The notes beneath the pieces are model-generated. The model saw only the letters and a list, made by a program, of their open reading frames with translations. It made no database searches and had not been told where the DNA came from. A DNA stretch of 64,000 bases from contig NW_003314262.1 in NCBI RefSeq assembly GCF_000143415.4, forward strand, positions 231,673-295,672, in the 5' to 3' direction. This document shows positions 20,968-56,894 of the stretch, piece after piece. This DNA is from Selaginella moellendorffii. Taxonomy: Eukaryota > Plantae > Lycopodiophyta. The position numbers and the translations under genes are program-made. Numbering within the stretch: position 1 is the first letter of the stretch; each line of letters starts with the position of its first letter.

Positions 20968-20979
20968 GCTCTGATACCA
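20968..20979 (-). promoter_or_regulatory. Primer-binding site for initiator tRNA-Met (TGGTATCAGAGC)
   Basis: 3 nt from the end of the 5' LTR; canonical tRNAiMet PBS. Confidence 0.9.
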
Positions 20980-20982
20980 AAT

Positions 20983-22787
20983 TGTAAGCGACTAATTTTT
21001 CCATTCTACTTTAGTCACTTAACCACACCTCCGACCACTTGGAGGAGTCTCATTCACAACCTCCATAAGTCCCATTCAGGACTTGGGGCTTGCTAGCCCC
21101 GAGAATGGCATCCATGCCACTCAACCTTTGCACTTGGTCCAAGTGCTCCACGTGTCCGATCCCAAGGTACCACTGACATCTCGGCCCGTTACGCTAAGGC
21201 CATGCCCATTCACCTTTGCTGCGCAAATGGTCCAATACCACTTGCATCACCATCCCGTCTCTCCAAGACTGGGCCATCTGTCTACGAGGGGTCATCCTGG
21301 ATCCACTCCTTAGCATCCTTAGGATGCCCACAGACCTGGGGAATCGCCTTCCCCAAAGTCCCTTTGTCAGTTCCTACCAAGTCCCTTTCTGCCCCTGGCC
21401 GTGTTTGCCAACACTACCACTGGATCGAGGCCCACAGGCCCGACCACTAAGTCCCACGGTCCTCTGGGACTTCCTCACCACACGACTGTGTCCTTGGTCA
21501 CTACCCCAGAGGACTGCTCCTCTTCCTTTCCACAGTCTGGGCCTTTGGGACGACATTTCGGAACACCGTGGCCTTACGCGAGCCACCTGGGTACTCTCCC
21601 CACCTATCGCCTTTAGGTGCTCTAGCCATGGGCTTAAAGCGAGGTTCCATTGAGCCATGCCTGGTATCCAAGTAGGTAGTGCCACCCACACTTGGACTGG
21701 GAGCATCGGCCAGTCGATCTCCCGGGGGAACTAGAGCCGGCTCTTGAACACTTCACCAAGCTACCCCACTTGTCGGTCCGTATTCACTCTAGTCTTGGAC
21801 TTCCCAGTGGTCAGTTCATCACCCAACACTGGGTCTGGCCTTCCTGGGCCAAACTGGCCTTTCCTGGCCAAACTGGCTCCACTGCAGTCCTCCCCCTTAC
21901 TATACTTTTGGAGCTCACCAAACCCCCCAGGGTCTGGGAGACGAACGCTTTGGGCTTTCACCCTCTCAGGCTCCGGACTCGGACTCGGACTCGGACTCGG
22001 ACTCGGACTCGGATTCGGATTCGGACTCGGACTCGGGCTCGGGCTCGGTCTCGGTCTCGGCCTCGGTCTCGGTCTCGGTCCCGATCTCGGTCTCGGTCTC
22101 GGTCTCGGTCCCGGTCTCGGTCTCGACTTCGGACTCCATCTCGGACTCCATCTCGGACTCCATCTCGGACTCCATCTCGGACTCCATCTCGGGTCCATCT
22201 CGGGTCCATCTCGGCAGCCAACTGTCTGTCCATCTCGGACTCCATCTCGGACTCCATCTCGGACTCCATCTCGGACTCCATCTCGGACTCCATCTCGGAC
22301 TCCATCTCGGACTCCATTTCGGGTCCATCTCGAGTCCATCTCGGACTCCATCTCAGACTCCATCTCAGACTCCATCTCGGGTCCATCTCGGACTCCATCT
22401 CGGACTCCATCTCGGACTCCATCTCGGGTCCATCTCGGGTCCATCTCGGACTCCATCTCGGACTCCATTTCGGGTCCATCTCGGGTCCATCTCGGACTCC
22501 ACTTCGGACTCCAACTCGGGTCCACCTCGGACTCCACTTCGGACTCCATCTCGGACACTCCCACGTGTCATGTGTTGGTCCTTTTGGGTCCCGTTTTGGA
22601 GCCTCGCCTTTTGCTCGTTTCGTGCTCGTTCCTCGAGCACTTCGTTGGGAGTTCCACTCCCGCTCTTGACTTTTCAAGTCGGAGCTTTTGGTCCAAACGT
22701 GTTACGCTCGTTTGGCTCTCGCTTCGGCCACTACCATGTGGCGCCCTTCCGGCTCCACTTTGGGGCCTAGGGATTTTGTGTCTCACA
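20983..22787 (-). repeat. 5' LTR of A1
   Basis: TG..CA ends, followed on the minus strand by the PBS. Confidence 0.92.
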
Positions 22788-25377: not shown

Positions 25378-27270
25378 TGTAAGCCATAAATTTTTCCTTT
25401 CCAATTTGCCAGCTTACCTCGTCTATCTGACCAACACTACCTTGGCTTGTGCTAAGTTCCCTTGCCAAGGTTCCTGCCTATTGTACCAGCTCCTACTTGG
25501 TCCTACTTGGTTTTAACTACTCACTGCATGAGCAACGAAGCGTCAGCCATCCATCCACGGATTCCCAAATCTCTCCCAATCCCCCTCCCCGGGTTAGACT
25601 GGACTTAAGGTTCGACTACACTTCCCGTAGGCACAAGCAGCCAAGCACACCAAGCTTCTAGATTCCTAACATCCCTTGGTACAACAAGACTTGATCATGG
25701 GACCCTCTAAATCCCAAGCCTTGGGTGTAACACTTGCATCGGGACATCGGGGCGAAACACTGTGGCTTAACGGCCTAGTATGGGTACGTCTACCCCCCCC
25801 ACTTCCATCCCGAAGGGAAGGCCTAAGCCCCTAGGAAAGGTGAGGACCAATGAGCCACAAGGTACTCAAGTGGGGCACCACTCCACATGAGCTGGGAGCA
25901 CCGCAGTCGGTTTCCCTTTCGGGAGTGGGAGCTGCTCTTGAGCACTTTCTCGGGTGGCCCATTCGGCACCACCCGAGTCCATGCTCACTCCCACCCAAGG
26001 CCCTTCAGCCCTAGTCTCAACCTCAAGTCAGTTTGGAAGCACCACTGGAGAGTTCCTTCAAGACTGGTTCCTAGACCTCACTATCCTTACTATACTTTTG
26101 GAACCCCCTATAGCCCCCCTGGGAGACGCACATTTTGGGCTTTCACCCCTTGATTTGTATTAGTACTCAGACTCGGTCTTAGACTTGATCTTGGACTCGA
26201 TCTCGGACCCGACTTCGGACTCGGTCTCGGACTCGATCTCGGACCTGACTTCGGACTCGATCTCGGACCTGATCTCGGACTTGACTTCGGACTCGACCTT
26301 GGACTCGGTCTTGGACCCGATCTTGGATCTCGGACTCTGTCTCAAACTCGGTCTCCGAGTCGGCCTTGGATTCGATTCTGGACTCTATCTCGAACTCGGT
26401 CTCAGAGTTGGTCTTGGACTCGATCTCAGACTCGGTCCCATCTGATGAACTCTTTATCATTTCGGTCATGCTTTCGAGGATCCTTTAGCCTACGACACCT
26501 TGGGGAGTTGGTTCCTTACAACTCTACCACCCATAGAAGAAGTTTGATGCCTATATCGAACGTCTCTTTTAAAATCCTACAACTTGTTGACCATGTCTCT
26601 GAGGGCATCCCCCCACTTAGCGGTGTGCCTAAGTTAGCCTCCCCGGCCAAGAGCCCATGACAACGGAATATAGGTGTCCCTATACCCCTCACCTCACCAT
26701 GCCTTAGTATGGGGTTGGGACTTGAACCCAGCCTTGCTTTACTAGGGGGTTGGGACTCGAACCCAACCTCCATAGAATACGTCTATGGATTCGACATCCC
26801 CGCGGGGAGTCAGGCATAGTGCCCTACGCCTGGTCGACCTAGCTAACCCATGCTAATTAGCTTACTTTCGGCGTACCTTCGGGTCCCAACATATGCTATT
26901 GCTCAACTTCACAAATTGATACTTTAATTGAACTTTGCATAAGTACATAGAGTTTTGCCTTGCAGAAATTCCTCCACTAGATCTCGCGTGTTCGCTAGGT
27001 TCTCCTCCGATTCCCATGTTGCTTCGCACTGTGGAAATCCTTTCCACTTCACATGGAACTCTCTCACCTCGTGTCCTTGTCGCTTGCTCTTGCGCGCATT
27101 GAGGATGGCCTCGACTTCGTATTCCTCCTCCCCTTGGATAACCTCAGGTAAAGGTCTTACTTGGTCCTTGGTGAAGCGGATCCTCAAAGTACGGCTTGAG
27201 TAAGTTCACATGGAACACTGGGTGCATCTTTGCCATCTCTCAAGGAAGTTGGAGACGATAAGCCACTTTA
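25378..27270 (-). mobile_element. Element B1: truncated chromovirus (3' LTR 25378-26520, PPT, 3' UTR, chromodomain end of pol)
   Basis: LTR homologous to 29461-30565; chromodomain EYEVEAILNARK..EFHVKWKGFPQCEATWESEENL. Homology to B2 ends at ~27270. Confidence 0.9.
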
Positions 27271-29057: not shown

Positions 29058-30967
29058 CAATGACTATTTGAACCAATAGACTAATCTCTATAGTCTTGAT
29101 TAATCCACTTATAATCATGCCTAAGAAAGATCTACTAGTGTCGTGCTAAATAGCTATGGACCAACCTACTTGCCACTCATAGCAAACCCAAGAAAGGTTC
29201 CTTTCACCCACGGTACATAGAACAACTATAAGCTCTTGAATTTAGACTTCCTAGGAGGTCACCTAGCCCAGTACTATTCAAACCCAAGGATGCTTAACCC
29301 CAAATATCCCAAGCGATTGGAAAAGGGGGTGCACTCTTGTTCATGGGCCCTTTCCCTCTATATTTGAACCCCTATGGATCGTCTCTCAAGTCGTTCTCTT
29401 TGGTTGTTTACAACAACTCATAGAACCACTGATAGACTAACATTAATCCTGCCAACTTAATGTAAGCCACAAATTTTTCCTTTCCAATTTGCCAGCTTAC
29501 CTCGACTATCCGTCCAACTCTGCCTTGGCTTGTGCTAAGTTCCCTCGCCAAGGTTCTCGCCTATGGTACCAGCTCCTACTTGGTCCTACTTGGTTTCAGC
29601 TACTCACTGCATAAGCAACGGAGTGTTAGCCATCCATCTACGGATTCCCAAATCTCTCCCAATCCCCCTCCCCGGGTTAGACTGGACTTAAGGTTCAGCT
29701 ACACTCCCCGCAGGCACAAGCAGCCAAGCATACCAAGCCTCCAAATTCCTAACACCCCTAGGTACCACAAGACTTGATCATGGGACCCTCTAAATCCCAA
29801 GCCTTGGGTGCAGCACTTGCTTCGGGACGTCGGGGCGAAACACCGTGGCCTAATGCCCCGGTATGGGTACCTCTAACCCCCCACTTCCATCAAGTGGGGC
29901 ACCACTCCACCTGAGCCGGGAGCACCGCAGTCGGTTTCCCTTTCGGGAGTGGGAGCTGCTCTTGAGCACTTCCCTGGGTGGCCCCTCTGGCACCACCCAA
30001 GCCCATGCTCACTCCCACCCAAGGCCCCTCGGCCCCAATCTCAACCTCAAGTCAGTTTGGAAGCACCACTGGAGAGTTCTTTCAAGATTGGTTCCTGGAC
30101 CTCACTATCCCTACTATACTTTTGGAACCCCCTGCAGCCCCCCCCCCCCCCCTGGGAGACGCATGCTTTGGGCTTTCACCCCTTGACCCGGATTAATATT
30201 TGGACTTAGTCTCTGGCTCGATCTTGGACCCGATTTCGGATCCGACTTCGGATTCGGGTTCGGACTCGATCTCGGACTCGATCTTGGACCCGATCTCAGA
30301 CCCGACCTCGGACTCGACCTCGGACTCGGTCTCGGACCCGATTTCGGATCTCGGACTCCGTCTCGAACTCGGTCTCGAACTCGGACTCGAACTCGGTCCC
30401 CGAGTCGGTCTCGGACTCGATTCCGGACTCTATCTCGAACTCGGTCCTAGAGTCGGTCTTGGACTCAATCCTCGACTTGGTCCCATCCGATGAACTCTTT
30501 GTCATTTCGGTTACGCTTTTAGGGATCCTTTAGCCTATGACATCTCGGGGAGTCGGTTCCTTACAACTCCACCACCCATAGAAGAAGTTCGATGCCCACA
30601 TCGAACGTCTCTTTTCATCCTACGACTTGTTGACCATGTCTCCGGGGGCATCCCCCCACTTAGCGGTGTGCCTAAGTTAGCCTCCCCGGCCAAGAGCCCA
30701 TGACAACGGAATATAGGTGTCCCTATACTCCTCACCTCACCACGCCCTAGTATGGGGTCGAGACTTGAACCCAGCTTTGCTTTACTAGGGGGTTGGGACT
30801 CGAACCCAACCTCCGTAGAATACGTCTACGGATTCGACATCCCCGCGGGGAGTCGGGCGTAATGCCCTACGCCTGGTCGACCTATCCAACCCATGCTAAT
30901 TAGCTTACCTTTGGCGCGCCTTTGGGTCCCAACATATGCCACTTGCTCAACTTTGCAAATAGATATT

Positions 30968-33900
30968 TTAATTGAACTTTGTGTAAGTACATAGAGTTCT
31001 ACCTTGCAGAAATTCCTCCACTAGATCTCGCGTGTTCGCTAGGTTCTCCTTCGGTTCCCATGTTGCTTCGCAGTGTGGAAATCCTTTCCACTTCACATGG
31101 AACTCTCTCACCTCGCGTCCTTGTTGCTTGCTCTTGCGTGCATTGAGGATGGCCTTGATTTTGTATTCCTCTTCCCCTTGGATAACCTCAGGTAAAGGTC
31201 TCACTTGGTCCTTGTGAAGCGGATCCTCAAAGTACGGCTTGAGTAAGTTCACGTGGAACACTAGGTGCATCTTCCCCATCTCTCGAGGAAGTCAGAGACG
31301 GTAAGCCACTTTACCGATTCGTGCCTCAATCTCGTAAGGCCCCGTGAACCTGCTTAAGGAACTCAAGATTAATTCATTTATAGGAATACATGCATCTTTA
31401 CTTTTGGGTCAACTTTCGGCTGATCCCACTTGGTAGTCTAAGGTTCTTGGTGTTCAGCCACACCTTCTCCCCAACTTGGAACTCTACATCCCGACGCTTC
31501 TGGTTCGCGTATTTGGTTTGCCTTTGTTGAGCCCGTTCCAAGGAATCCCTCACTAGATTCCAAATACTGAGTCTTTCCGCTGTGAATGCCTCCACTGCGG
31601 GCAACTCTCCATGATATTCGGCCACGCCGAGTTCCACAGGACCTTCAATAGCTCGCCCATTGATGACTTCCCATGGACTCACCCCGATACTCGAATGTGG
31701 TGAGTTGTTATAACACATTTCCGCAAGTCCCAAATGACTTACCCAATCGGTCTGGTCTCCCGAGACATAGCATCGCAAATAATCCTCCAGCTGCCTATTC
31801 ACCCTTTCCGTTTGTCCTTCTGTCAAGAAGTGTTAGTGCCAACAACTTGACTTAATACCCCATACCTGTCTATGGGTGATAGGTTGTGCTGAATTTCAAC
31901 TTGGTGCGATACTGTTCTAGGAGAGTCCTCCAGAACCTACTGGTGAAGATCTTATCTCGATCTGAGATGATCTCTTCCGGTCTTCCCCGCACTCGAACCA
32001 CTTGTTCGAAGAATAGCTTCGCCACACCTTCCGCATCCACCTCCGTTGTGGTGGGTATGAAATGTGCCATTTTCGAAAATCGGTCCACCACCACGAATAT
32101 CGCATCAAACCCCTCGCTTGGGGGGAGTCCTGTGATAAAGTCCATCGTAAGACATTTCCACGGACGATCTGGAATTGGGATGCTTTGCAACAAGCCCCCA
32201 CTAGCCTTAGTCACGGCTTTTACCTACTGACATGTTGGACATGTCTTTACATAGTCTTGGATGTCCTTAGCCATATCTGGCCAATGGTACTTCCTCTTGA
32301 GTAAGCCCATCGTCTTGGGCACTCTGCCGTGTCCCGCAAGAGGTCCGTCATGACACTCTTCTAAGGCCACCTTCCTTAGTTCCCCTTCTGGAACATACAC
32401 CCTCGTTTGCTTGTAATAGATGAGTCCGTTGCGTTCCGCATAGCCCGTTTTCTTTTCCGTTGGCAGCTCACCTCTCTGGTGAGCTTCCCGTGCCTCTAGA
32501 TTCCTCAGCAACACTTCTTGTGCTAGACCATCGTTCTCATATGCTGTCCGCACATCGTTCCAGAAGGTTGCTGTTGCGCTGGATATTGCCAACCTCAAGC
32601 TCGCTTTTCGACTTAACGCATCTGCCACAATGTTGCTCTTCCCAGGCTTGTACAGAATCTCGCAATCAAACTCGGCCAAGGCATTGGCCCACCAACCTTG
32701 TTTCCCTCTCAGGTCGGGCTGTGACAAGAAGTGTTTTGTTGCCACATTGTCCGTGTAAACCTTGAAGTGTCTCCCAAGGTAGTGTCGCCACTCCTTGAGT
32801 GCCTTGACCACCGCAAACAATTCCTTCTCGTGGGCAGGCCACTTCCTTTGAGCCTTGTCCAACTTCTTCAAGAAGAACGCTACCGGATGGTTGTCTTGCT
32901 TCAAAACTGCGCCCAACGCAAAGTCCGAAGCATCCGTTTCTACCTCAAAGTCCTTACCAAAGTCTGGTAATGCCAATACGGGAGCCTTCCTCAACTTCCC
33001 TTTGAGGTGGACGAATGCCGCCTCGCATTCTGCTGTCCACACCATCTTCCCTTTTCCTGTTTGGTCCGTTAAGGGCAGGGTTACTCTCAAATAGTGTCTG
33101 ATAAACTTTCGATAGTAGTTGCATAGCCCCAGGAATGCCCTCAACTCATGTACATTCGATGGTCGCTCCCATTCCTGGATCGTTTGGACCTTCTCCGGGT
33201 CCACCTTGAGCCCGTCCTGGCCCACCACATACTCGAGAAACTTTACCTCTTGTTGAGCAAAGTCACATTTTCTCTCTTTAGCATACAGTTTGTGTTCCCT
33301 TAATTTCTCAAACACCTTCGCCAAGTGTTCGGCATGCTCCTGTAGCATCTCGCTATAGATCAGGATGTCGTCGATATAGACGACCACGAAGTGATCCAGA
33401 TAGGGTATAAAGATGTGGTTCATTAGCGCCGAAAATGTTGCCGGCGCATTATATAGCCCGAAGGGCATCACTAGAAACTCAAAGCTCCCATACCTCGTTC
33501 GACAGGTTGTCTTCTTGACATCTTCCTCGGCTACCCTGATCTGGTAGTATCCTGACCTTAGGTCAATCCTCGAGAAGTATTTTGCCTTTCCCAACCTATC
33601 AAACAGGTCCTCAATCCTTGGCAAAGGGTACTTGTTCTTCTTTGTATACTTGTTGAGCAACTGGTAGTCTATGCACATGCGCATAGATCCATCTTTCTTT
33701 TTCACAAATAACACCGGCGCCCCATACGGCGACTTGCTCAACCTAACATACCCTTTGTCCACCAACTCCTCTAGTTGGCACTTGAGCTCCTTGAGTTCTT
33801 TTTCGTTCAAACGATAAGGGGGACGAACCACCACCTCAGCACCCTCGACCAGCTCAATCTTATGTTCTATCGGTCGTGCGGGGGGCAACCCCGCCAGTAA

Positions 33901-34584
33901 CTCGGTATTCTGGAATTGGTCCAACACCCATTGGATCACTAAAGGTACTTCTTCCGTTCCTGTCTTTTTGTCACTCTTCACCGAGAGTAAGCACAAAAAG
34001 GCTGCCTTAGTTCCTTTAGTGAGTTGTCCTCTCGTGGACACCAGGTTTAAGCAGGATTCTTTGGCCTTGCTTTGCCCTACCTTTAGATCTTGGGCCTCCA
34101 CCCTAGATCTTCTTCCTTGGGCATTCGCTAGTACCACAAGGTTTCTACCTTGTCCATGCAGGGCTACCACGAACCGATTAAACCAGTCCATTCCGAAGAT
34201 CACATCAAATCCCGCCATGTCCAACACGGTGAAGTCCATGTCCACTTTCCAAGTCCCTACTTTGACTCTCGCTTGTCGAAGTACCTCATCGGTGCTTTGG
34301 CTACCTTGAACAAACTCTATAGTCCTGGGTTCGCCTAGCCGCTGCACCGTTAGTCCGGCTTGCCGGACTATGTCTGCAGCCACAAAATTATCCGAAGCAC
34401 CCGTGTCAATAAGGATCTTAACAAATCTACCTCCGAGCTTCCCCCGGAGGGCTAGTAGATGTCGCGAGCGACTCTCTACCAAAGTTGCTCGTGTAATGAG
34501 TAACTTTGAGTTAGGGACTGGATCACATACCTCAGTTTGGACTTCACTCGATTTGATGGCCATATTGGCTCCGGGTAGGGACAT
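30968..34584 (-). pseudogene. pol: pol of B2 (protease, RT, RNase H, integrase, chromodomain) with two GT-AG introns (31820-31865, 31350-31401) and three point stops
   Basis: [29 protein letters not shown] finger, MDF..ISDRD..QTER, GPY, chromodomain. Stops at 32224, 31870 and 31292 are each one C>T change from CAG or CGA. Confidence 0.9.
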
Positions 34585-35040
34585 TCCATCGAAAAGTGTC
34601 CCGCTTCACCGCAGTTGTAGCATACGTTATTTCCCACGCTGCTATACGACTTGACCTTCTTATCCATGGGTTTGTCTCTTTTCGCTTGACTCCCCCACGT
34701 ACTCGCTCGCTGGCCACCGGATTTGCCTTTCCGGAACCCCGAGGACTCATTTTTAGAGAAACTCCTCTTGAATTTCCCTCTACTAAACGTTCCCCTTGGT
34801 TTGGCCCCTTTGCTAAACGTGGATCCCGACCCCGTCGTGTTCCCCTTTCGCAGATTATCGTTGAAATGCACCTTGATGGCCGCATCCAACGCTTCCTTGT
34901 AGTTGGTCGGGTTCCACCGCATCACTTCGCCGCGAGCCCAGGTTTGCAAACCTGATATGAAGGCATGGAACGCATCCATATCCCCCATGTCCGTGACAAG
35001 TATCCTCTTTGCCATAAACCCATTCACATACTCCTGAATG
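34476..35040 (-). pseudogene. gag: C-terminal part of B2 gag with CCHC zinc knuckle
   Basis: IQEYVNGF..FISGLQ..EV..NPTNYKEALDAA and [14 protein letters not shown]; the N-terminus was lost by the deletion into the LTR. Confidence 0.85.
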
Positions 35041-37942
35041 AGCAACAGAGTGTTAGCCATCCATCTACGGATTCCCAAATCTCTCCCAATCCCCCTCCCC
35101 GGGTTAGACTGGACTTAAGGTTCGGCTACACTCCCCGTAGGCACAAGCAGCCAAGCACACCAAGCCTCCAGATTCCTAACACCCCTAGGTACCACAAGAC
35201 TTGATCATGGGACCCTCTAAATCCCAAGCCTTGGGTGCAGCACTTGCTTCGGGACGTCGGGGCGAAACACCGTGGCCTAATGGCCCGGTATGGGTACGTC
35301 TAACCCCCCACTTCCATCCCGAAGGGAAGGCCCAAGCCCCTAGGAAGGGCGAGGACCAATGAGCCACAAGGTACTCAAGTGGGGCACCGCTCCACCTGAG
35401 CCGGGAGCACCGCAGTTGGTTTCCCTTTCGGGAGTGGGAGCTGCTCTTGAGCACTTCCCTGGGTGGCCCCTCCGGCACCACCCAAGCCCATGCTCACTCC
35501 TACCCAAGGCCCCTCGGCCCCAGTCTCAACCTCAAGTCAGTTTGGAAGCACCACTGGAGAGTTCCTTCAAGATTGGTTCCTGGACCTCACTATCCCTACT
35601 ATACTTTTGGAACCCCCTGCAGCCCCCCCCCCCCCCCCCTGGGAGACGCACGCTTTGGGCTTTCACCCCTTGACCCGTATTAGTATTTGGACTTAGTCTC
35701 TGGCTCGATCTCGGACCCGATTTCGGATCCGACTTCGGATTCGGTCTCGGACTCGATCTCGGACTCGATCTCGGACCCGATCTCGGACCCGATCTCGGAC
35801 CCGACCTCGGACTCGACCTCAGACTCGGTCTCGGACCCGATTTCGGATCTCGGACTCCGTCTCGAACTCGGTCTCGAATTCGGACTTGAACTCGGTCCCC
35901 GAGTCGGTCTCGGACTCGATTCCAGACTCTATCTCGAACTCGGTCCTAGAGTCGGTCTTGGACTCGATCCTCGACTTGGTCCCATCCGATGAACTCTTTG
36001 TCATTTCGGTCAAGCTTTTGGGGATCCTTTAGCCTACGACATCTTGGGGAGTCGGTTCCTTACACTCAAAGCGTAACTTTGAATTGCTAATGTGCCTAAT
36101 TCACAAGCCCAAGCACAAACTCATGCAAACAAAACAACTCAATCCCTTTTATGATCCCAAGAGCAAGCTCATATAATACAGTACAAAAAAGGTAACTAAA
36201 ATCCATATCCAAGGAACAGATGTGTAGCGCACCTGAATTTGGAGCCGAACTCCAAGCCTGTTGCACTACGAAATGAGGGTTCGGTACAATCCCACAAGCA
36301 CCAGCTCCCTGTATCTAGCACCTGCATGCAAAATGGTGTCAGACGGAGTCTAGCATAATTTTGGCATACCGGTGGCCTAATGCGAGGAGGAGGGTACCCC
36401 ACCGACTAGAGCAGCGTGGAGCTTGGGTTTAGACCCAAGCCGGACGTAGAACAAGGAGCGACACAGCCCAACGGGAGCCAAACTAATGTCTCAAGTGGTC
36501 GGACATGCATTCCAACCATTATCCCTACTATACATTTGGAACCCCCCATAGCCCCGCCCCGCCCCGCCCCCCCCCCCCCGCCCGAGGAACACACGCTTTG
36601 GGCTTTCACCCCAAGCCTCCCTTAGTACTAGCAGTTAGTCTCTGGGACAAGCTCGAAATTTACTAAATATGGAATGGTGCTAGATTGTGAACACCATTGT
36701 GTTCAGGCTGACCTCTACATTCTATAGATATGCCAAATGAGCAAATCTAGACACTTTCCATAAATAGCATTTGGGACCGAAATGAGACTAACACAAAGGG
36801 CATGATAGCGAGGGTGTCTGGTAGACATGGTAAGTTATCATCCGGCGATATTGAAGGACTAGTCTCAATACATAAGGGTTCTTGTCACTAGCCAGTGCAA
36901 GACATAACGAGACGGGAACTCCTTACCGGGCTAAGTATGCTTAGCTAATAGCACGTAGGAATTCCGTCCTTATACTTGTCCACTCTAAGTACACTCAAAA
37001 TGTCCAGTTAACTCCACTAGCACAAGAGGGGCTACTAAAGGGATCCAATTGTACCGATCTTCTGCCGTCATGGCAATAAAGAAAGAGTGTCCGTAAGGAT
37101 TGGCCGACAAGTATCTTTCGATACCCAAAGTCACATTCGCGACACTCTCCCCCCCTTGGGGAAGATCGACGTCCTCGTCGATGCATACCCAAGTCTAGCA
37201 AACCGTCAAGGAAACAACTCTGAAAATTAACGGAAAGCACACTATGTGGGAAACACACCAACTTAAATGAGTTATGGAACGACCTCTCCTCTACATCCAA
37301 AGATGTTAAGACTCAGACACCCTCTGGCTGTCACCGACAAGGAAATGACTAATGGAGTTAGCCACCCTTGTTGCTTCGAGTACCACTCAGCGTACAAAGG
37401 AATTATACATCCCTACCCACAGGGACATAGGGAGAAGGCCAAAGGCCCAACTTCCCCTGAGCAAGAAATCAACCTCGTCGGGAAGATTTAGACAACTATT
37501 ATAAACTAGCAAATGAAGTTGTTTACACGACCACGCCCCTTTTGCAAAAATGAGTCATCGAGAGAGAGGCGAGGACTTGTGATCAGTTTATAATAATTAT
37601 CCCCATGGTTATGGATTGGACCCATGCATCAAAGTGCCGAAGTCAGTCTGCCAAAACTGACCCAAATTCTAACAAACGAGAGAGACGACACTTGGATTTA
37701 CAATGCTACCATCTTTGCCCAACCATGACAGAACAAAGCAGACAAACTAGAAGATTCCGTGAAAGGATATGTATTAGAATAGTAAAAAAATCAAAAGACC
37801 TTGCCGATATATTTAGCCCTAACTCTAACCTAAAACACCTATTTTACAAGTTGGTTCAATAGAACAATGTGAGGCAGCTAACGTGCCAATAGAAATATAT
37901 TACTTTATTAATTTGCAAGATTTATTACAAGATTTACAAAAG

Positions 37943-42892: not shown

Positions 42893-45369
42893 TCCAACTA
42901 ATCCTACACAAGTCGCTTTGGATCTACTAGAAAAGTGTGAGACGTAAAATCCCTAGGCCCCAAAGTGGAGTCGAAAGGGTGCCACGTGGTAGTGGCCGAA
43001 GCAAAAGCCAAACGAGCGTAACAAGTTTGGACTAAAAAGCTTCGACTTGAAAGGTCAAGAGCGGGAGTGGAACTCCCAACGGAGTGCTCAAGGAACGAGC
43101 ATGAAGCGGACAATAAGCAAGGCTCTGAAAAGTGACCCAAAAGGACCAACACATCACACGTGGAGGAGTCCGAGATGGACCAAGACGGAGTCCGAGATGG
43201 AGTCCGAGATAGACCGAGATGGAGTCCAAGACGGAGTCCGAGAATGGAGTCCGAGATGGACCCGAGATGGAATCCGAGATGGAGTCCGAGAAGGACCCAA
43301 GTTGGAGTCCGAGATGGAGTCCGAGATGGACCGAGACAAAGTCTGAGATGGAGTTTGAGATGGACCGAGACGGAGTCCGAGATGGAGTCCGAGATGGACC
43401 AAGATGGAGTCCGAGATGGACCCGAGATGGAGTTTGAGATGGACCGAGATAGAGTCCGAGATGGAGTCCGAGATGGACCCGAGATGGAATCTGAGATGAA
43501 GTCCGAGAAGGACCCGAGATGGAGTCCGAGGTCGAGACCGAGACTGGGATGGAGACTGAGACCGAGACCAAGACCGGGACCGAGACCGAGACCGAGACCG
43601 AGACCGGGACCGAGACCGAGACCGAGACTGGGACCGAGACCGAGCTCAAGCCCGAGTTCGAGTCCGAGTCCGAGTCCGAGTCTGAGTCCGATTCCGAGTC
43701 CAAGTCCGAGTCCGAGTCCGAGTCTGAGAGGGTGAAAGCCCAAAGCGTTCGTCTCCCAAACCCTGGGGGGTTTGGTGAGCTCCAAAAGTATAGTAAGGGG
43801 GAGGACTGCAGTGGAGCCAGTTTGGCCAGGAAAGGACAGTTTGGCCTAGGAAGGCCAGACCCAGTGTTGGGTGATGAACTGACCACTAGGAAGTCCAAGA
43901 CTAGAGTGAACACGGACCGACAAGCGGGGTAGCTTGGTGAAATGTTCAAGAGCCAGCTCTAGTTCCCCTGGGAGATTGACTGGCCGATGCTCCCAGTCCA
44001 AGTGCGGGTGGCACTACCTACTTGGATACCTGGTGTGGCTCAATGGAACCTCGCTCTAAGCCCATGGCTAGAGCACCTAAAGGTGGAAGGTGGGGAGAAT
44101 ACCCACGGGGCTCACATAGGGCCACGGTGTTCCGAAATGTTGTCCCAAAGTCCCAAATGGGTGTAAGGAGGAGGAGTAGTCCTCTAGTGTAGTGATTACG
44201 GATACGGTCACATGGTGAGGAAGTCCCAGAAGACAATGGGACTTAGTGGCCAGGGCAGTGTTGGTGAATATGGCCATGGACGAAAAAGGGACTTGGCAGG
44301 AACTGACAAAGGGATGTTGGGGAAGGCTATTCCCCATGTCTATAGGCATCCTAAGGATGCTAAGGAGTGGATCTGGGATAACCACATGTGGACGGACGGC
44401 CCAGTCTTTGAGAGACGAGACTGTGATACTGGTGGTGTTGGACCACCGGTGCTACCAAGGTGAATGGGCATGGCCTTAGCGTAATGGGCTAGTATGTCGG
44501 TGGTACCTTGGGGTGTCGGTCATGGGACCAGACACGTGGAGCACTTGGACCAAGTGCAAAGGTTGAGTAGCATGGATGCCATTCTCGGGGCCAACAAGCC
44601 CCAAGTCCTGAATGGGACTTATGGAGGTTGTGAATGAGACTCCTCTAAGTGGTCGGAGGTGCGGTTAAGTGACTAAAGTAGAATGGAAAAATTAGTCGCT
44701 TACAATTTGGTATCGGAGCTGTTCCTTAGTCCGACTTTTATTGGTGCTCAAGTATATCACCATTGATATTGGCATCGGAAGGTCCTAGGAGGGGGCCTAT
44801 CCTTGAAGAGTAGCATGTCGAGAGGACATAGCTCTCCACTCAAGTTCATGCGTGAACTTAGGCGTGATATGGTGGATAGAAAAGGGGCCAGTAAGGGAAC
44901 GACTTTGGTGTGAGACACAAAATCCCTAAGCCGCAAAGTGGAGTCGGAAGGGTGCCACGTGGTAGTGGCCGAAGCGAAAGCCAAACAAGCGTAGCACGTT
45001 TGGACTAAAAGCTCCGACTTGAGAGGTCAAGAGCGGGAGTGGAACTCCCAACAAAGTGCTCAAGGAGCGAGCACGAAGCAAACAATAAGCAAGGCTCCAA
45101 AAAGGGACCCAAAAAGGACCAACGCATGACACGTGGAAGTGTCCGAGATGGACCCAAAGTGGAGTCTGAGATGGACCCGAGATGGAGTCCGAGATGGACT
45201 CGAGATGGAGTCCGAGATGAAGTCCGAGGTGGACCCGAGGTGGAGTCCGAGATGGACCGAGACGGAGTCCGAGATGGAGTCCGAGATGGAGTCTGAGATG
45301 GACCGAGACGGAGTCCGAGATGGAGTCCGAGATGGAGTCTGAGATGGAGTCCAAGATGGAGTCCGAGAT

Positions 45370-45469
45370 NNNNNNNNNNNNNNNNNNNNNNNNNNNNNNN
45401 NNNNNNNNNNNNNNNNNNNNNNNNNNNNNNNNNNNNNNNNNNNNNNNNNNNNNNNNNNNNNNNNNNNNN
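45370..45469. other. Assembly gap inside the LTR tandem array
   Basis: 100 N. Confidence 1.
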
Positions 45470-48400
45470 GAGACCGAGACCGAGATCGGGACCGAGACTG
45501 AGACCGAGGCCGAGGCCGAGACCGAGCCCGAGCCCGAGTCCGAGTCCGAGTCTGAGTCCGAGTCCGAGTCCGAGTCCGAGTCCGAGTCCGAGTCCGAGTC
45601 CGAGTTCGAGTCTGAGAGGGTGAAAGCCCAAAGCGTTCGTCTCCCAGACCCTGGGGGGTTTGGTGAGCTCCAAAAGTATAGTAAGGGGGAGGACTGTAGT
45701 GGAGCCAGTTTGGCCAGGAAAGGCCAGTTTGGCCCAGGAAGGCCAGACCCAGTGTTGGGTGATGAACTGACCACTGGGAAGTCCAAGACTAGAGTGAATA
45801 CGGACCGACAAGCGGGGTAGCTTGGTGAAGTGTTCAAGAGCAGGCTCTAGTTCCCCCGGGAGATCGACTGGCCGATGATCCCAGTCCAAGTGTGGGTGGC
45901 ACTACCTACTTGGATACCAGGCGTGGCTCAACGGAACCTCGCTCTAAGCCCATGGCTAGAGCACCTAAAGGCGATAGGTGGGGAGAGTACCCAGGTGGCT
46001 CGCGTAAGGCCACGGTGTTCTGAAATGTCGTCCCAAAGACCCAGACTGTGGAAAGGAAGAGGAGCAGTCCTCTGGGGTAGTGACCAAGGACACAGTCGTG
46101 TGGTGAGGAAGTCCCAGAGGACCGTGGGACTTAGTGGTCGGGCCTGTGGGCCTCGATCCAGTGGCAGTGTTGTCAAACACGGCCAGGGGCAGAAAGGGAC
46201 TTGGTAGGAACTGACAAAGGGACTTTGGGGAAGGTGACTCCCCAGGTTTGTGGGCATCCTAAGGATGCTAAGGAGTGGATCTAGGATGACTCCTCGTGGA
46301 CAGATGGCCCAGTCTTGGAGAGACGGGATGGTGATGCAAGTGGTATTGGACCACTAGTGCAGCAAAGGTGAATGGGCATGGCCTTAGCGTAACGGGCCGA
46401 GATGTCAGTGGTACCTTTGGGTGTCGGTCATGGGATCGGACATGTGGAGCACTTGGACCAAGTGCAAAGGTTGAGTGGCATGGATGCCATTCTCGGGGCT
46501 AGCAAGCCCCAAGTCTTGAATGGGACTTATGGAGGTTGTGAATGAGACTCCTCCAAGTGGTCGGAGGTGTGGTTAAGTGACTAAAGTAGAATGGAAAAAT
46601 TAGTCGCTTACAACTTGGTATCAGAGCTGTTCCTTAGTCCGACTTTTATTGGTGCTCAAGTATATCACCATTGATGTTGGCATTGGAAGGTCCTAGGAGG
46701 GGGCCTGTCCTTGAGGAGTAGCATGTCGACAGGACATGGCTCTCCACTCGAGTTCATGCATGAACTTGGGCGCGATGTGGTGGATAGAAAAGGGGCCAGT
46801 AAGGGAACGACTTTGGGATCTGGGGAACAGTATAAGGTTTCCTCAAAGAGCTGCGGATGTGATCCAGATGAACGTTTGATGCAGCAAACGGGCTAACGTA
46901 GTTGTGGTAAACAACTATAATTGGGATCACGGGAAAGATGTAGACTCCAAAATAATAAAGGAGTCACAAGATTACCCTCATATAGTTGAGGCCGGTGCTC
47001 ATAACTTTGAGACCGGAATTGATGACCATGGGAGGTCAAATATAGGAGAGGACACAAGTCCTCGAAATGGTAGCTGAGGTTGCCCTTGATAAATGCTGGA
47101 ACAACCCAAAGAGTTGGGGATGTACTTAGAGGATGAGTTGGTATTCTCATCACATGGACAAGTGGTCCTAAGAGGCAAAAGGTTGCCCCAAGAGAACAAA
47201 TCAAGTGTCGGAGTAACACTTGCAAAGATGGTCCTTGTGAGTAGGACCTGAATACAAGAAGTTGTATTTAAGTGAGCTAGCACCTCAAAGGTAGGACCTC
47301 ATGGGTCGTCAGATGACAAAGTCCAAAAAGCTGGATGACTCCAATAGAGTCAAGGAATAATCCTAAAGGATTGATGGAAGCATTTGGACTGAGGTGTGTG
47401 GTACCCCACGAAGGATGGGGGGGATCATAGGATCCAAGGATGAGAACAGAGGGTATCTCATCGATGGCAAAATGTGCCATGCTAAAGTCGTGGGAAGGGT
47501 GTTCCCAAAAGAAAACAACTTTGAAACAAAGTTGTGTGTGACCTCTATAGTGCAGTGCTAACGGATGGTTGGCATGAGAAAGAGTGGTATTGGTCTTGGC
47601 AAAGACTTAGACACAAAGAAGAAGTGTCATAGAGGTAGGCTCGTGAAGCCGATAGTGTGGAGACACCAAATGTGCCAAGGTGTGATACCTTGAGGCTATG
47701 TTGGTGAGTTCATGAGAACCCCCTGCCAAAGGAATCCCAATGGAAATGGGAATGGCATAGCCTAAGTTGCAGAGCATGCAATTGGAGTGTGGTGACCCAG
47801 ATAATGATGGAGGTGTGGAAGCACCAGCAATGAGTTGTAGGACTTGACAACTATGAGGCAACTAAGCAAGAGGTGCAAAATAATTGGTTAAACGGGTAGA
47901 AAGTAACTACCCAAGCCTTCTTAATGGCATAAGGAAGTTGGATATACCCTTACGGGGGATAAGTTGCTTATGTTGCGATATAGTAAGTCAATGTCATGAA
48001 AGGAAATACTCATTGTCAAGGAAGCCATCATTGGGACACCCGAACACTCTAGAACACCAGGAGGTGGTGTTTGATGTCGCGAGGGCAATAGATAAGGCCC
48101 AAGGGACAAAGTCCCTAGCGAATGATGGATAGAAGGTGCTATCCAAATGCCCAAGGTGGCGGAGACAGGAGAAGACTGTCTACTCGAATTGGACAAAGCC
48201 AAAAATGGAATTTTGGCAAGGCTAGCAATGGGCATGTAAAGGCCCATAAGCAACAACGTAATCTCGGTGTGTGGGATTATAGGGTGAGCATACCTGGATT
48301 GAGGAACCACTCCCTAGGCTATCGGGTAGGTTCATCCCTAAGAATACTTGCTAAGGAATGATAGAAAGTGCAAAGCTATCCTCCTGGTCTGGAGGAGAAT

Positions 48401-49089
48401 GACCAAAGGAAATGTGTGAAGCCAAAAGCAAGAAGTAAAGGGGTAGAACCGAACCATAGGAATCGAAGGGCATAACCAAGGTTGGTTATGCCAGCTGGGA
48501 GTGGAGAATCAAGTGGGGGCTCGAGGGTGTTGCCACTAGCAACCGTGATGCCATGGAGAGTCTAAAATATGGAATTGTCCATGTTAGACTATATGGTAAT
48601 TGGAAAGCTTGCAAAAAGGGAGGCCTTAGCAAGCTAAGGGACAGAGTTCCTTCAAGGTTTCCAAAGACGATTTTAGGTAGCTTAGTACCTAGAAAGGCCA
48701 AGTGTAAATGGTTCATGAAACGCGTAAAATCAGAGTGGCGCAGCAGAAGCGTGGTCTTGAAGCTGGCCATGAGGCAATGCTATCAAGGTTAGGGAAGTAG
48801 TTCCCGAGTGTTCAAAGAGAGGGCTTTGAATGAAAGTCGATGATCAAGGGCTTTCACGCTTGTGCAGGAACCATGTTACAGTGGTCGGAGGGCTTGCCAA
48901 AGCGAGATTGGCAAGTCAGGGGAACAAATACCCTAGTTGAAGGTGATAACTTCAAAAGGGGTGGGCCATGAGGCCAAGCATGGAGGAGTCCATGCATGAT
49001 CACAGACTTGTCAAGTGTGAGGACTTGGCAGTGTGGAGGAACTAGGTTCCTAAGCTGTGATCTGTAGCGCGCTTTGAGTATAAGTTGGT

Positions 49090-49510
49090 GCACCGGCGTG
49101 GGGAGTCACGCCAGGCATCCTGGGTGATGCCGTCCGTAGATGCATATACGGAGGTTGGGTTCGAGTCCCGACCCTCTAGTGCTTGGGTTCGAGTCCCAAA
49201 TCACTAGGGTGTGGTGATGGTTTGGAATATGAGGACACTCATATTTCGGTGGTCATGGACTCTCAGTGAGGAGACTGGTTTGGGCACACCGCCAAGCGAG
49301 GGATGCCTCGGAGTCGTGATGCACGGTTAGATTGCTTAGAGTGAAAGCTCGGTATATCTAACTTGAACACTTTGGTGCAAAAGGCACCAAGGACATGGTG
49401 AATGAGATGGGGACACCCAGTCTCAGTTGCTATGGATCCTTGGCCGGAAGGGCTGGCTTGGGTGCACCGCCAAGCGTGGGGGATGCCCCCGGGGTCATAG
49501 TCAACAACTT
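49090..49510 (+). other. Conserved structured RNA module of families A and B (other copies at 18100-18520 -, 26583-26838 -, 30626-30882 -, 55857-56257 +)
   Basis: Series of hairpins with conserved stems, variable loops and compensatory changes between copies. Confidence 0.7.
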
Positions 49511-52500
49511 AGAAGGGTCCGGAAGACCTAGTTCCTATTGGTAGACCTATTAAGGGGTCAAGATGAGATCACTAGGTGATCTTGTGGCTAAACAAGGACA
49601 AGGTCTTTGTTTGGGTTAAGGAATATGATTCCTAGTTCAAAGTGTTGATTTGAACTATTGATAAAGGTGTGGCTTGGTCAAGGTGACTAAGTGGGAAGGA
49701 CACCTAAGGGAAATGAACTACTACAATATAATGGTATTATGAGTTCAAGAAAATAGTCTCCAGAGATAAGCCCATGGGTGGGTCACAAGGTTGGGCTAGG
49801 AAGAGATCCTAGAACAGTAGGGAGACTTATTAGGGGTGAACACCCTAGTCTGGGCAAAGCAAATCCTTTGCTATGAAACCAAAAAAATACCTCAAGGAAG
49901 GAGGTAATGATCCTATGTTGCTTGGTGCAACAACCTAAGGATAGGAGCAAAAGACGAGTGCCCAAGATAGGGCTGTGGAATCCATTGGAAAGAATCCAAG
50001 TGGCAAAGTTAGCCAAGGAACACTAATGTGTTTGATGCTAACGGATTGCGGAAAAAAGAAGTGGACTTCCAAGGATGGATTCCCAAGTGCTCCAATTTGG
50101 CAAAGGAAAGGCTCCAAGTGAGGGAGCAATTAAGTAGCCAAAAGATAGGGCCATGGACAGCCCTAGCACAAATAATGATAAATGGAACGTAGTGCCAAGG
50201 GCGGCACAAAACAGAAAAGAGGATGATGGTGCCCTCAAGTAAAGAACTTCCTAGGATAGGGAAGTGGAGTTGCACAAAATGTGCAAGGCAAGATGTCGGA
50301 GACACCTAGGAAATTGACTCCAAAAAGTCAAGAGTAAACGTTCCAAAGTGCAAAGGTAGATCAATGGAATCTGTGACTACTCAAGAATGAGTAGTGGAAT
50401 TGAGTTAGAGAGGGTGTCTCTAACGGGTTTAGCGAGAACTGAACTAATAAAAAGGAGCAAACCACCACAGGTGGTCAAGTGAGCCTCTAAGTTGGAGAGA
50501 CTATCCTCCTTAAAGGATGGGCAAGGCATGGTGAGCCTTTGGTGTCGAACCATTGACGAATATGGAGAAGGCATGGTGAGCCTTCAATGTCAAACCATTG
50601 ACAAATATTGGCTAGGGGCCAAGGATGGAAATGGTAACACATGTGGGTGTTACTTTATAAAATGGTTTACCGTTTGATGAGGACATCGAACTTCGTCTAT
50701 GGGTGGTGGAGTTGTGAGACACAAAATCCCTAGGCCCCAAAGTGGAGCCGGAAGGGTGCCACGTGGTAGTGGCCGAAGCGAAAGCCAAACAAGCGTAGCA
50801 CGTTTGGACTAAAAGCTCCGACTTGAGAGGTCAAGAGCAGGAGTGGAACTCCCAACAAAGTGCTCAAGGAGCGAGCACGAAGCGAACAATAAGCAAGGCT
50901 CCAAAAAGGGACCCAAAAAGGACCAACGCATGACACGTGGAAGTGTCTGAGATGGACCCGAGGTGGAGTCCGAGATGGACCCGAGATGGAGTCCGAGATG
51001 GACCCGAGATGGAGTCCGAGATGAAGTCTGAGGTGGACCGAGATGGAGTCCAAGGTGGACCCGAGATGGAGTCCAAGATGGACCGAGATGGAGTCCGAGA
51101 TGGAGTCTGAGATGGACCGAGACGGAGTCCAAGATGGAGTCCGAGATGGAGTCCGAGGTGGACCCGAGGTGGAGTCCGAGATGGACCGAGACGGAGTCCG
51201 AGATGGAGTCCGAGATGGAGTCCGAGAAGGACCCGAGATGGAGTCCGAGGTCGAGACCGAGACCGGGACCGAGATTGAGACTGGGACCGAGACCGGGACC
51301 GAGACCGAGACCGAGACCGGGATCGAGGCCGGGACCGAGACCAAGACCGAGCCCAAGGCTGAGACCGAGCCCGAGCCCGAGTCCGAGTCCGAGTCCGAGT
51401 CCGAGTCCGAGTCTGAGTCCGAGTCCGAGTCCGAGTCCGAGTCCGAGTCCGAGTCCGAGTCCGAGTCCGAGTCCGAGTTCGAGTCTAAGAGGGTGAAAGC
51501 CCAAAGCATTCATCTCCCAGACCCTGGGGGGTTTGGTGAGCTCCAAAAGTATAGTAAGGGGGAGGATTGCAGTGGAGCCAGTTTGGCCCAGGAAGGCCAG
51601 ACCCAGTGTTGGGTGATGAACTGACCACTGGGAAGTCCAAGACTAGAGTGAATACGGACCGACAAGCGGGGTAGCTTGGTGAAGTGTTCAAGAGCCGGCT
51701 CTAGTTCCCCCGGGAGATCGACTGGCCGATGCTCCCAGTCCAAGTGTGGGTGGCATTACCTACTTGGATACCAGGCGTGGCTCAACGGAACCTCGCTCTA
51801 AGCCCATGGCTAGAGCACCTAAAGGCGATAGGTGGGGAGAGTACCCAGGTGGCTCGCGTAAGGCCACGGTGTTCTGAAATGTTGTCCCAAAAGCCCAGAC
51901 TGTGGAAAGGAAGAGGAGCAGTCCTCTGGGGTAGTGACCAAGGACACAGTCGTGTGGTGAGGAAGTCCCAGAGGACCGTGGGACTTAGTGGTCGGGCCTG
52001 TGGGCCTCGATCCAGTGGCAGTGTTGTCAAACACGGCTAGGGGCAGAAAGGGACTTGGTAGGAACTGACAAAGGGACTTTGGGGAAGGCGACTCCCCAGG
52101 TCTGTGGGCATCCTAAGGATGCTAAGGAGTGGATCTAGGATGACTCCTCGTGGACAGATGGCCCAGTCTTGGAGAGACGGGATGGTGATGCAAGTGGTAT
52201 TGGACCACTAGTGCAGCAAAGGTGAATGGGCATGGCCTTAGTGTAACGGGCCGAGATGTCAGTGGTACCTTTGGGTGTTGGTCATGGGATCGGACACGTG
52301 GAGCACTTGGACCAAGTGCAAAGGTTGAGTGGCATGGATGCCATTCTCGGGGCTAGCAAGCCCCAAGTCCTGAATGGGACTTATGGAGGTTGTGAATGAG
52401 ACTCCTCCAAGTGGTCGGAGGTGTGGTTAAGTGACTAAAGTAGAATGGAAAAGTTAGTCGCTTACATTTGGGATCTTGGGAATAGTATAAGGGTTTCCTC

Positions 52501-54514: not shown

Positions 54515-56894
54515 AATCCTAATTGAAATGGGAATGGCATAGCCTAAGCTGGAAGGCATGTGATAGAGTGTGGTGACCAAAACAATAATGGAGGTGTGGA
54601 AGCATCAACAATGAGTTGTAGGACTTGACAACTATGAGGCAACTAAGCAAAAGGTGCAAGATAATTGGTTAAACAGGTAGAAGATGGCTACCCAAGACTT
54701 CTTAATGGAATAAGGAAGTTAAATATACCCTTACTGGGGATAAATTGCTTATGTTGTGATATAGTGAGTCAATGTTGTAAAAGGAAATGCTCATTGTCAA
54801 GGAGACCATCATTGGGACACCTAAACACTCTGAAACACTAGGAGGTGGTGTTTAGTGTCGCAAAGGCAATAGATAAGGCCCAAGGGACTAAGTCCCTAGC
54901 GAATGATGAATAGAAGGTGCTATCCAAATGTCTAAGGTTGCAGAGACGGGAGAAGATTGTCTACCCAAATTAGACAAAGCCAAAAATGGAATTTTAGCAA
55001 AGCTAGTGAAGGCCCATGAGCAGCAACATTAATCCCGGCATGTGGGATTATAAAGTGAGCATACCTGAATTGAGGAACCACTCCCTAGGCTATCAGGTAG
55101 GTTCATCCCTAAGAATACTTGCTAAGGCATGATAGAAAGTGCAAAGTTATCCTCCTAGTCTAGAGGAGAATGACTGAAGGAAAGGTGTGAAGTTAAAAAG
55201 CAAGTAGTAAGGGGATAGAACCGAACCATAGGAATTGAAGGGTATAACCAAGGCTGGTTATGCCAGCTAGGAGTGGAGAATCAAGTGGGGGCTCGAGGGT
55301 GTTGTTGCTAGCAACCGTAATGTCATAGAGAGTCTAAAATATGGAATTGTCCATGTTAGACTATATGGCAACTAGAAAGCTTGCGAAAAAGGAGGCCTTA
55401 GCAAGCTAAGGGACAGAGTTCCTTCAAAGTTCCCAAAGACAATTCTAGGTAGCTTAGTACCTAGAAAGCCAAGTGTAAATGGTTCCTAGAACGCGTGAAA
55501 TTAGAGTGGCGCAGCAGAAGCGTGGTCTTGAAGCTGGCCATGAGGCGAAGCTATCAAGGTTGGGGAAGTGGTTCCCGAGTGTTCAAAGAGAGGGCTTTGA
55601 ACGAAAGTCAATGGTTAAGGACTTTCACGCTTATGCATGAACCATGTTACGGTGGCCAGATGACTTGCTAAGTGAGATTGGCAAGTCAAGGGGACAAATC
55701 CCCTAGTTGAAGGTGCTAACTTCAAAAGGGGTGGCCCATGGGGCCGAGCATGGAGGAGTCCATGCATGATCACAAACTTGTTAAGTAAGAGGGACTTAGC
55801 AGTGCGGAGGAACTAGGTTCCTAAGCTGTAATCTATAGCGCACTTTAACTATAAGTTGGTGCACTAATGTGAGGAGTCACGCTAGGCATCTTGGATGATG
55901 CCTTCCGTAGATGCATATACGAAAGTTGGGTTCGAGTCCCGACCCTTTAGTGCTTGGGTTCGAGTCCCAAATCACTAGTGCGTAATGATGGTTTAGAATA
56001 TGAGGACACTTATATTTCGGTGGTCATGGACTCTTAATGAGGAGATTGGCTTGGGCATACCGCCAAGCAGGGGATGCTCCGGAGTCGTGATGCATAGTTA
56101 GATTGCTTAGAGTGAAAGCTCGGCATATCTAACTTGAACACTTTGGTGCAAAGGGCACCAAGGATGTAGTAAATGAGATGGGGACACCCAAGTCTCAATT
56201 GCTATGGATCCTTGGCCGGAAGGGGTAACTTGGGCGCACCGCTAAGTGTGGGGGATGGATTTGTGAAATCTAGATCTCCAACAAAGTCAGCATCAACATA
56301 TCTACTAAAGTGTTCCCAACTTGGATTGGGAGACAATGCCCATAGCAAGCACTATGTATGGATGTGTATAAACCATCAAGTATAGTACGTTGCTAATAGC
56401 TTGTCAATACAGAACAATAATTATCTTAGAATAGTTCTTTGGTGGGGACGTGGACAAATCTTCTCTGCCAAGACGGAATCAATCAAGCACTACATGATCA
56501 AGTGTTTTTTTATTACAGTTAATGCTAACGTATTGTTTGGCAATTGGAAGCGCCAAAATGTGATTCAAACGAAAAGAACACGATTTCTCGACTCTCACTC
56601 TCTCTCTCTCTCAACTCTCTCGACTCTCTCTACAAACGAAGTGTGGTGCCCATGTTCTCCTTGGTCTTGCCAGCGTTGTTTCCACCAGGATGGCCAGCCT
56701 CTAGGCAGCCGAAGCAGCCAGCCCTCGAACACGGCTCACCAGGATTGTCCCTGGAGGACTGAGTGAAAGCTCCAGGTCCAGCTCCGGACTGTGAGCTAGT
56801 GTCCCTGGAGGACACAGCAAAAGCTCCAGCTCCGGGCTGGGGACGCTTTCAGCTGCCGGATCCCGTGGTCCATCCTGTGCTGCCGTCGTCAAAG

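Follow-up and report, generated by a model that had tools for sequence, protein, structure and literature searches.

A predicted RNA domain with two T-arm mimics, shared by a non-coding and a coding LTR retrotransposon family of Selaginella moellendorffii

Several described systems resemble parts of the locus reported here. Box B, in the intergenic region of bromovirus BMV RNA3, presents a T-loop motif on an internal stem-loop at a non-coding site that is read in cis, with the proteins acting in trans; it matches the tRNA T-loop, is required for template recruitment and is functional when transposed, according to the accounts of box B in PMC4083346 and PMC5869524. Structured non-coding cis-elements are also found in LTR retrotransposon RNA, with RTE in IAP and MTE in MusD as the examples given in the relevant passages of PMC12786077. 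Among plant elements, LARDs such as Sukkula combine long LTRs, a PBS and a PPT with kilobases of structured non-coding interior, and their trans-complementation is assumed, whilst the Cassandra TRIM is a short non-autonomous LTR element with Pol III-gene-derived sequence, carrying a 5S promoter in each LTR (passages on both groups in PMC7215508). SM1-Galahad, from the same host as the elements studied here, has LTRs of about 1.1 kb, a poly-G tract, gag-pol and a chromodomain, and its published description offers no account of the 3' UTR in the part that covers the element (PMC3350952); the words 'untranslated', 'hairpin' and 'nonautonomous' occur nowhere in that text (Novikov 2012).

Here, we describe a domain that occurs in two LTR retrotransposon families and which, judged by its modelled fold, may represent a further type of structured retroelement cis-element, probably a selected one. 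Both families lie in one window, the whole stretch of 64 kb of S. moellendorffii DNA that was analysed (contig NW_003314262.1), and all positions below are counted from its first letter. Its first ORF encodes a product 98% identical to the sarcosine oxidase of this species. Self-comparison revealed nested LTR retrotransposons across the window, of which the following features are needed first.

44909..52466, + strand: A3, a complete family A element, a non-coding LARD-type LTR retrotransposon of 7.56 kb, with TG..CA ends and a 5-bp target duplication
46616..46627, + strand: PBS for initiator tRNA-Met in A3
46628..50698, + strand: family A internal region in A3, with about 100 short hairpins with differing loops
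50671..50712, + strand: hairpin and polypurine tract before the 3' LTR, common to families A and B
15133..22787, - strand: A1, a complete family A element, with TG..CA ends, a 5-bp target duplication and LTRs 99.1% identical
29461..36064, - strand: B1, a family B element, a Ty3/gypsy chromovirus by Pfam, translation, LTR ends and tree

A3, whose LTRs are 97.3% identical with the repeat block excluded, is nested inside A2, an older, decayed and truncated family A copy that hosts two insertions, A3 and a solo B LTR. The PBS of A3 is identical in its 12 letters to a plant PBS given in a passage of PMC7215508. No coding remnant was found in the 4.1-kb interior of family A (16933-20970 on the - strand in A1), where gag/pol tblastn gave no match and the best phmmer E value was 0.09. 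Family A is thus non-coding yet recently mobile, and with its LTRs, PBS, PPT, target duplication and a 4.1-kb interior devoid of coding capacity it has the features of a LARD. It differs from described LARDs in being hosted by a lycophyte, in having a partner family that can be identified by a shared 3' domain, and in containing mimics of the T-arm and a fragment captured from the primer tRNA, neither of which the LARD passages of PMC7215508 mention.

The partner, family B, has LTRs of about 1.1 kb with a poly-G tract and encodes PR-RT-RH-INT and a chromodomain. Its one near-complete copy, B1, retains the gag end, protease, RT, RNase H, integrase and chromodomain, interrupted by stops and frameshifts, and has lost its leader, PBS and gag start by deletion; a second copy, B2, is truncated. 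In a quick tree built without a named Galadriel reference, the family B RT falls in a clade with an angiosperm group (SH-aLRT 93, unstarred), which we take to be Galadriel. Compared by description, family B matches SM1-Galahad of the Galadriel clade as far as that element is described in PMC3350952. Its nearest relative in the RT tree is family C, with one copy in the window, a decayed chromovirus at 36300-42950 (- strand) that is perhaps SM2-Galahad and shares an LTR promoter-like block with poly-G; an assignment of family C to SM-Tcn1 was dropped since the RT tree places it beside B. The LTRs of A and B also have in common U3 arrays of 6- and 12-nt repeats that are about 70% alike (43100-43800, 51000-51560 and 30140-30470).

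The domain itself spans 49087-49324 in A3, approximately 240 nt, and its parts and copies are as follows.

49087..49217, + strand: domain I, an 8-nt palindrome and a short closing helix enclosing H1-H5
49095-49112, + strand: H1
49114-49131, + strand: H2
49133-49152, + strand: H3
49153-49173, + strand: H4, a T-arm, with its T-loop at 49160-49166
49174-49209, + strand: H5, a T-arm, with its T-loop at 49188-49194
49224..49247, + strand: H6, a 10-bp hairpin with an invariant GACA loop
49249..49324, + strand: four-way junction, closed by a long stem and bearing three hairpins; its 8-nt and GATG loops are conserved
49403..49505, + strand: second module, a diverged repeat of the GACA hairpin and four-way junction, family A only
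49087-49324, + strand: the A3 domain as a whole, in the internal region
18520-18283, - strand: A1 domain, with the second module at 18204-18102
55858-56095, + strand: A2 domain, within the stretch annotated for this decayed, truncated copy (55858..56257)
30628..30882, - strand: B1 domain in the 3' UTR, starting 86 nt past the chromodomain stop and ending about 50 nt short of the polypurine tract
26585..26839, - strand: B2 domain in the 3' UTR of the truncated copy

An initial annotation of this DNA had proposed a tRNA-like hairpin array at 49090..49210, shared by two LTR families, and much of that description held. All five hairpins were found in the place proposed (49095-49209) and the MFE fold consists of exactly these five arms; the array is common to two LTR retrotransposon families, with five copies in the window (three of family A and two of family B); in the three A copies the second stem does not change, whereas its loop differs in the way described; and family B has the same hairpin order in other letters, with single A and B sequences giving the same fold. 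Some points needed amendment. The array does belong to LTR elements but sits in their internal region, outside the LTRs, and although the five arms lie within the range first given, the unit continues to about 49324 and is followed in family A by the second, diverged copy of its 3' half. The stem letters of this second module differ from those of the first, and its GACA loop is the same.

In family B the domain occupies most of the 3' UTR. A low-stringency comparison of the A3 and B1 interiors, the latter with its leader, PBS and gag start deleted, returned only two matching stretches, namely the domain (72% identity over 229 nt, and 75% over 101 nt for the second module) and a 48-nt stretch at the polypurine tract that is 90% identical. 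The 1.15 kb that separates the block from the polypurine tract in family A has no match in B, and the single copy of family C in the window has no match to the domain. Two smaller motifs were seen at this site. One is a further 8-nt palindrome, built on a GCGCGC core, which lies upstream of the domain (49066-49073 and 30920-30913); it is present in A3, A1 and B1 and broken in A2 and B2. The motif TGGTGA (49212-49217) lies just ahead of the GACA hairpin, in B as well as in each of the two modules, and may either close domain I or, as paired by eye, form a pseudoknot with the 8-nt loop of the junction (49284-49291).

The two T-arms are the most recognisable part of the domain. There are 11 occurrences of the 11-mer that corresponds to a B-box or T-arm in the window, where 0.34 would be expected, and nine of them fall inside the five domain copies. 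In family B one T-arm nearly duplicates the other, and the pair should probably be credited with a single origin; B1 has damage in its second T-stem. The term 'tRNA-like' is apt for the two T-arms but extends neither to a tRNA gene nor to a cloverleaf with an acceptor end: ARAGORN found no tRNA genes in the window, and Rfam gave no tRNA match up to E 1 over the whole window or E 10 over 49000-49560. The Rfam search matched the domain to no other family either. With a five-armed fold and these negative searches, a tRNA gene or pseudogene was set aside. A tRNA-derived SINE was likewise judged improbable from the window, as a strict A-box is lacking at working distance in all five copies; each copy, within the window, sits at a homologous place in an LTR element and has no tail, and no SINE match was found there. 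An aminoacylated terminal tRNA-like structure was dismissed too, given that the domain is internal, lies more than 1 kb from the element end in both families and has no Rfam match.

If these motifs act as DNA, they could form an internal TFIIIC insulator or Pol III promoter, in the manner of the Cassandra 5S promoter. Summed over the five copies, the two B-box 11-mers are perfect at nine of ten positions, and the captured tRNA piece of family A contains an A-box-like motif, which would suit this explanation. That motif, however, lies about 420 nt upstream, lacks the conserved G and is absent from B, whilst a strict A-box 30-60 nt upstream of the B-box was found in none of the five copies. Nor was a sense T-run terminator found downstream in the scanned stretches of four of the five copies, B2 having one TTTT about 150 nt downstream of the B-box; a type 2 Pol III unit was rejected on these grounds. 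Most covarying pairs fall outside the B-boxes, and a DNA site leaves covarying stems over 240 nt unexplained. We therefore regard the insulator put forward in the initial annotation, or any such DNA-level role, as highly unlikely. The comparison with Cassandra also fails in position, since the domain is internal and tRNA-like and lacks an A-box and a terminator where Cassandra has its 5S promoter in each LTR (PMC7215508, in its Cassandra passages), and the 5S box A/box C pattern matches only once in the window, outside families A and B. That match (29257-29299, the boxes 18 nt apart) belongs to a 5S rRNA-derived piece at 29230-29317 (- strand) adjoining an LTR-like repeat at 28611-29057, which may be a 5S pseudogene or a Cassandra-like relic.

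Evidence that the domain is selected as RNA comes from its fold and from the way in which the two families differ. The five-arm fold has z = -3.72, with none of 200 shuffles equally good; since the opposite strand folds equally (z = -5.25), energy alone does not assign the strand. Domain I adopts the same fold from single sequences of A3 (z -3.58) and B1 (z -4.38), and the junction fold was the same in four of four single sequences in two separate fold tests (z -1.1 to -2.7). Across domain I and H6, 96.8% of 220 cells are paired and six of 44 pairs are changed on both sides, and for the module in three lineages 97.5% of 238 cells are paired with 13 of 34 pairs double-changed; both pair sets derive partly from the same sequences that were scored, and the 44-pair set excludes the pairs innermost in H2 as well as some at helix ends. 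In neither case did any of 500 shuffles reach the covariation score, and slid controls were only 31-47% paired. Among the individual changes are a junction pair that swaps by transversion (G-C/U-A) and two adjacent pairs in the H6 GACA stem that swap oppositely between the families.

How far this survives a control for deamination depends on the null that is applied. Within the 44-pair set, A3 and B1 differ at ten pairs, all of which remain paired, whereas five of ten changed pairs are broken in the decayed copy A2 (Fisher P 0.03 for the contrast with B1). When the full 48 pairs of the A3 fold are taken, five are broken in B, two of them via a one-base shift in H2, and this set still beats an observed-spectrum null for B1 (P 0.02 and 0.003) but does not reject a one-way null of deamination only (P 0.21-0.46). 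A two-lineage deamination null is rejected in the A-to-B direction for domain I (broken pairs P 0.001 and <0.001; double changes P 0.010 and 0.005) and for the junction (P 0.007), while it stands in the B-to-A direction and for the second module (P 0.10-1.0); the decayed A2 fits it. The excess of G-U pairs on the sense strand is modest and not significant (45:30 and 49:35, with 24:48 for the antisense fold). Taken over two families and three module lineages in one 64-kb window, we consider it highly probable that selection acts on the structure of the sense-strand RNA. The earlier suggestion of a selected cis-element thus stands as regards a selected RNA structure, on the strength of covariation, identical single-sequence folds and retention in a non-coding mobile family.

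The domain could instead be a passenger. On this view it would be the ancestral 3' UTR, in which a T-arm had been captured and duplicated, and it would owe its retention to descent or to recent recombination, with a general pressure for short hairpins as the only force shaping it. The interior of family A is indeed rich in hairpins, with 104 in A3 and 113 in A1 (25-28 per kb), compared with 19 per kb in B pol, 13 in family C pol and 8-10 in host DNA, so that even B pol is well supplied; downstream of pol in other Ty3/gypsy elements we counted 2.5-18.8 per kb (20 of 42 loci measured). In the A3 interior, 15 of 34 windows have z < -2.5, against five of 171 in four host stretches. The paving hairpins have purine-rich loops, and no single recurring loop was found among those of family A, the commonest occurring in three of 113. 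Within family A, paired columns differ by 9.5% and unpaired columns by 14%, with ten double changes against 4.2 expected, so the structured interior expected of a LARD is present with modest, partly circular support from double changes. Given this paving, which the initial annotation missed, a hairpin array in itself is less remarkable in family A, and it is the letters and loops shared with B that are distinctive. Near-duplicate T-arms in B, the occurrence of tRNA capture (as the family A piece attests), the absence of the block from family C and the deamination nulls that stand would all fit a passenger. A general pressure for hairpins would nevertheless leave loop letters free, yet the T-loops and the GACA, 8-nt and GATG loops are fixed between the families while those of H2, H3 and H7 drift, and the stretch between block and polypurine tract in A has not been kept in common with B. 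On balance, we find a passenger quite unlikely.

If the RNA structure is selected, the question is which step it serves. A gene-less mobile element would require cis signals only, for transcription, export, packaging, reverse transcription and integration, and family A may borrow Gag and Pol from family B. Because family A lacks genes and is yet mobile, a stretch that it retains should be read in cis, at a step independent of translation, and since the domain is what A kept of the B interior it likely serves an RNA step. A role in translation (frameshift, read-through or 3' enhancer) was discounted, as the domain persists in the family that has no coding sequence. The reading that we tentatively favour, at close to an even chance, is that the domain is a cis-acting signal that routes full-length RNA into the virus-like particle of family B. 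Gag/nucleocapsid, or a host helper that binds tRNA, could dock on its invariant loops (the two T-loops and the GACA, 8-nt and GATG loops), much as the T-loop mimic of box B, the closest working analogue, serves bromovirus template recruitment, and the short hairpins around it might hold this long non-coding transcript in local folds. The packaging signals known from retroviruses and Ty1 sit near the 5' end, which counts against a packaging role at the 3' end, and the B1 leader, where such a signal might be sought, is deleted; the lack of the domain in family C, the nearest relative of B, also counts against packaging. In Ty3, on the other hand, packaging relies on the UTRs or POL, and miniTy3 retains part of the 3' UTR, according to passages of PMC4974528 and PMC11381356.

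The likeness to the bromoviruses can be set out further. As modelled, the domain has internal hairpins tipped by a T-loop motif, as in box B, which is itself reportedly modified like tRNA. The likeness is one of motif and predicted fold; the domain has two T-arms in a five-armed fold, belongs to a reverse-transcribing element and shows no sequence relation to box B. The mammalian TRUB1 target code is GUUCNANNC in a 7-nt loop on a 5-bp stem, as given in a passage of PMC5340967, and applying this mammalian TRUB1/Pus4 code with a stem of at least 5 bp, we found it in the first T-arm of all five copies and in the second T-arm of three. From this motif we would predict pseudouridine in the first T-loop, placed there by a TruB-type enzyme. 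In a bolder form of the idea, the domain would be a T-loop tag, modified by a host tRNA enzyme and read by Gag or a tRNA-handling factor in convergence with the bromoviruses, and the gene-less family would have copied and partly doubled the tag so as to outcompete its helper for packaging. We consider this fuller scenario unlikely.

Nuclear export is the chief alternative to packaging. The domain may be an export or stability element for unspliced RNA in the manner of RTE and MTE, perhaps using the T-arms to enter a tRNA export route, a proposal that we judge unlikely though second in rank. Both RTE and MTE are located downstream of pol, exportin-t recognises the tRNA T-arm, and export is a need of the non-coding family too; the structural evidence is shared with the packaging reading. 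RTE and MTE, however, use the mammalian NXF1 route, and we know of no T-loops in either; the domain has no sequence or Rfam match to known export elements and, being internal, lacks the mature tRNA ends that exportin-t requires. Structured export elements do exist in mouse LTR retrotransposons, whereas for plant LTR retrotransposon RNA there has been no direct study of export, according to the relevant passages of a 2025 review (PMC12786077).

A contribution to reverse transcription was weighed in the light of a second tRNA-derived feature, which is found in family A only.

48729..48755, + strand: sense copy of the 5' 27 nt of initiator tRNA-Met (acceptor strand and D-arm)

This piece is present in all three A copies (0.3 expected), about 330 nt upstream of the domain and within a gap of the hairpin paving. 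Compared by eye, 24 of its 27 letters are those of the human 5'-tiRNA-iMet in a passage of PMC13625232 and 18 of 19 those of a wheat small RNA in a passage of PMC5411081; the comparison also drew on PMC1797187. It most likely arose via a template switch onto the packaged primer and, as it is absent from family B, it stands outside the shared signal. One might suppose that the T-loops dock on the elbow of the primer tRNA, or that the palindromes start genome dimerisation. Ty3 has a primer site that is partly in the 3' UTR and dimerises via a short palindrome (passages of PMC4974528 and PMC11381356), an 8-nt palindrome opens the domain in both A and B, with differing cores, and family A carries the 5' third of the primer tRNA. 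Such 8-nt palindromes are common, though, with 16 in 4.1 kb, and family B has no tRNA piece. A complementary second primer site was also not found, with no complement to the primer T-arm (1.2 expected) and one to the anticodon arm (5.0 expected), using motifs from human tRNA from which the plant T-arm may differ. An aid to reverse transcription is in our view very unlikely.

Homologues were sought beyond the window. Twin-T-arm patterns matched at least 120 and at least 119 loci in viral and metagenome contigs, mostly duplications of tRNA 3' ends, and none of those listed was accompanied by retroelement proteins; six metagenome contigs (L124, L146, L158, L182, L188 and L199) contain tandem arrays of T-arm/B-box units. 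Exact domain motifs gave zero, zero and one match in viral contigs, the one being without a model hit. The family B RT-RNase H retrieved no locus as a single query, and alignment queries retrieved 91 Ty3/gypsy loci in viral and bacterial assemblies, none of which is a close Galadriel-type element with a 3' UTR. Neither model of the domain matched these 91 loci (best 14.9 bits without structure; 0 hits). T-arm hairpins are rare in them, with one in 419 kb: a lone hairpin 360 nt after the chromodomain in one of the 42 loci with a pol end (L292:3991-4007). Its contig holds an unrelated Ty3/gypsy element, with no similar array and no tRNA gene around the hairpin. The eukaryotic Ty3/gypsy sequences found in many bacterial assemblies (contigs L249-L327) are evidently contamination. 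Within abstract-level literature listings, which exclude subscription papers and repeat libraries, we found no description of T-loop mimics in the UTR of a plant LTR retrotransposon.

For plant LTR retrotransposons, the cis-acting RNA signals that govern packaging and export have been poorly characterised. One compact, covarying domain common to a coding and a non-coding family offers a ready candidate for such a signal, together with a natural helper-parasite pair, and the interior of family A provides a clear example of what the RNA of a LARD looks like. If the T-loop mimicry is true, it would link retroelements to a mechanism of plant RNA viruses.
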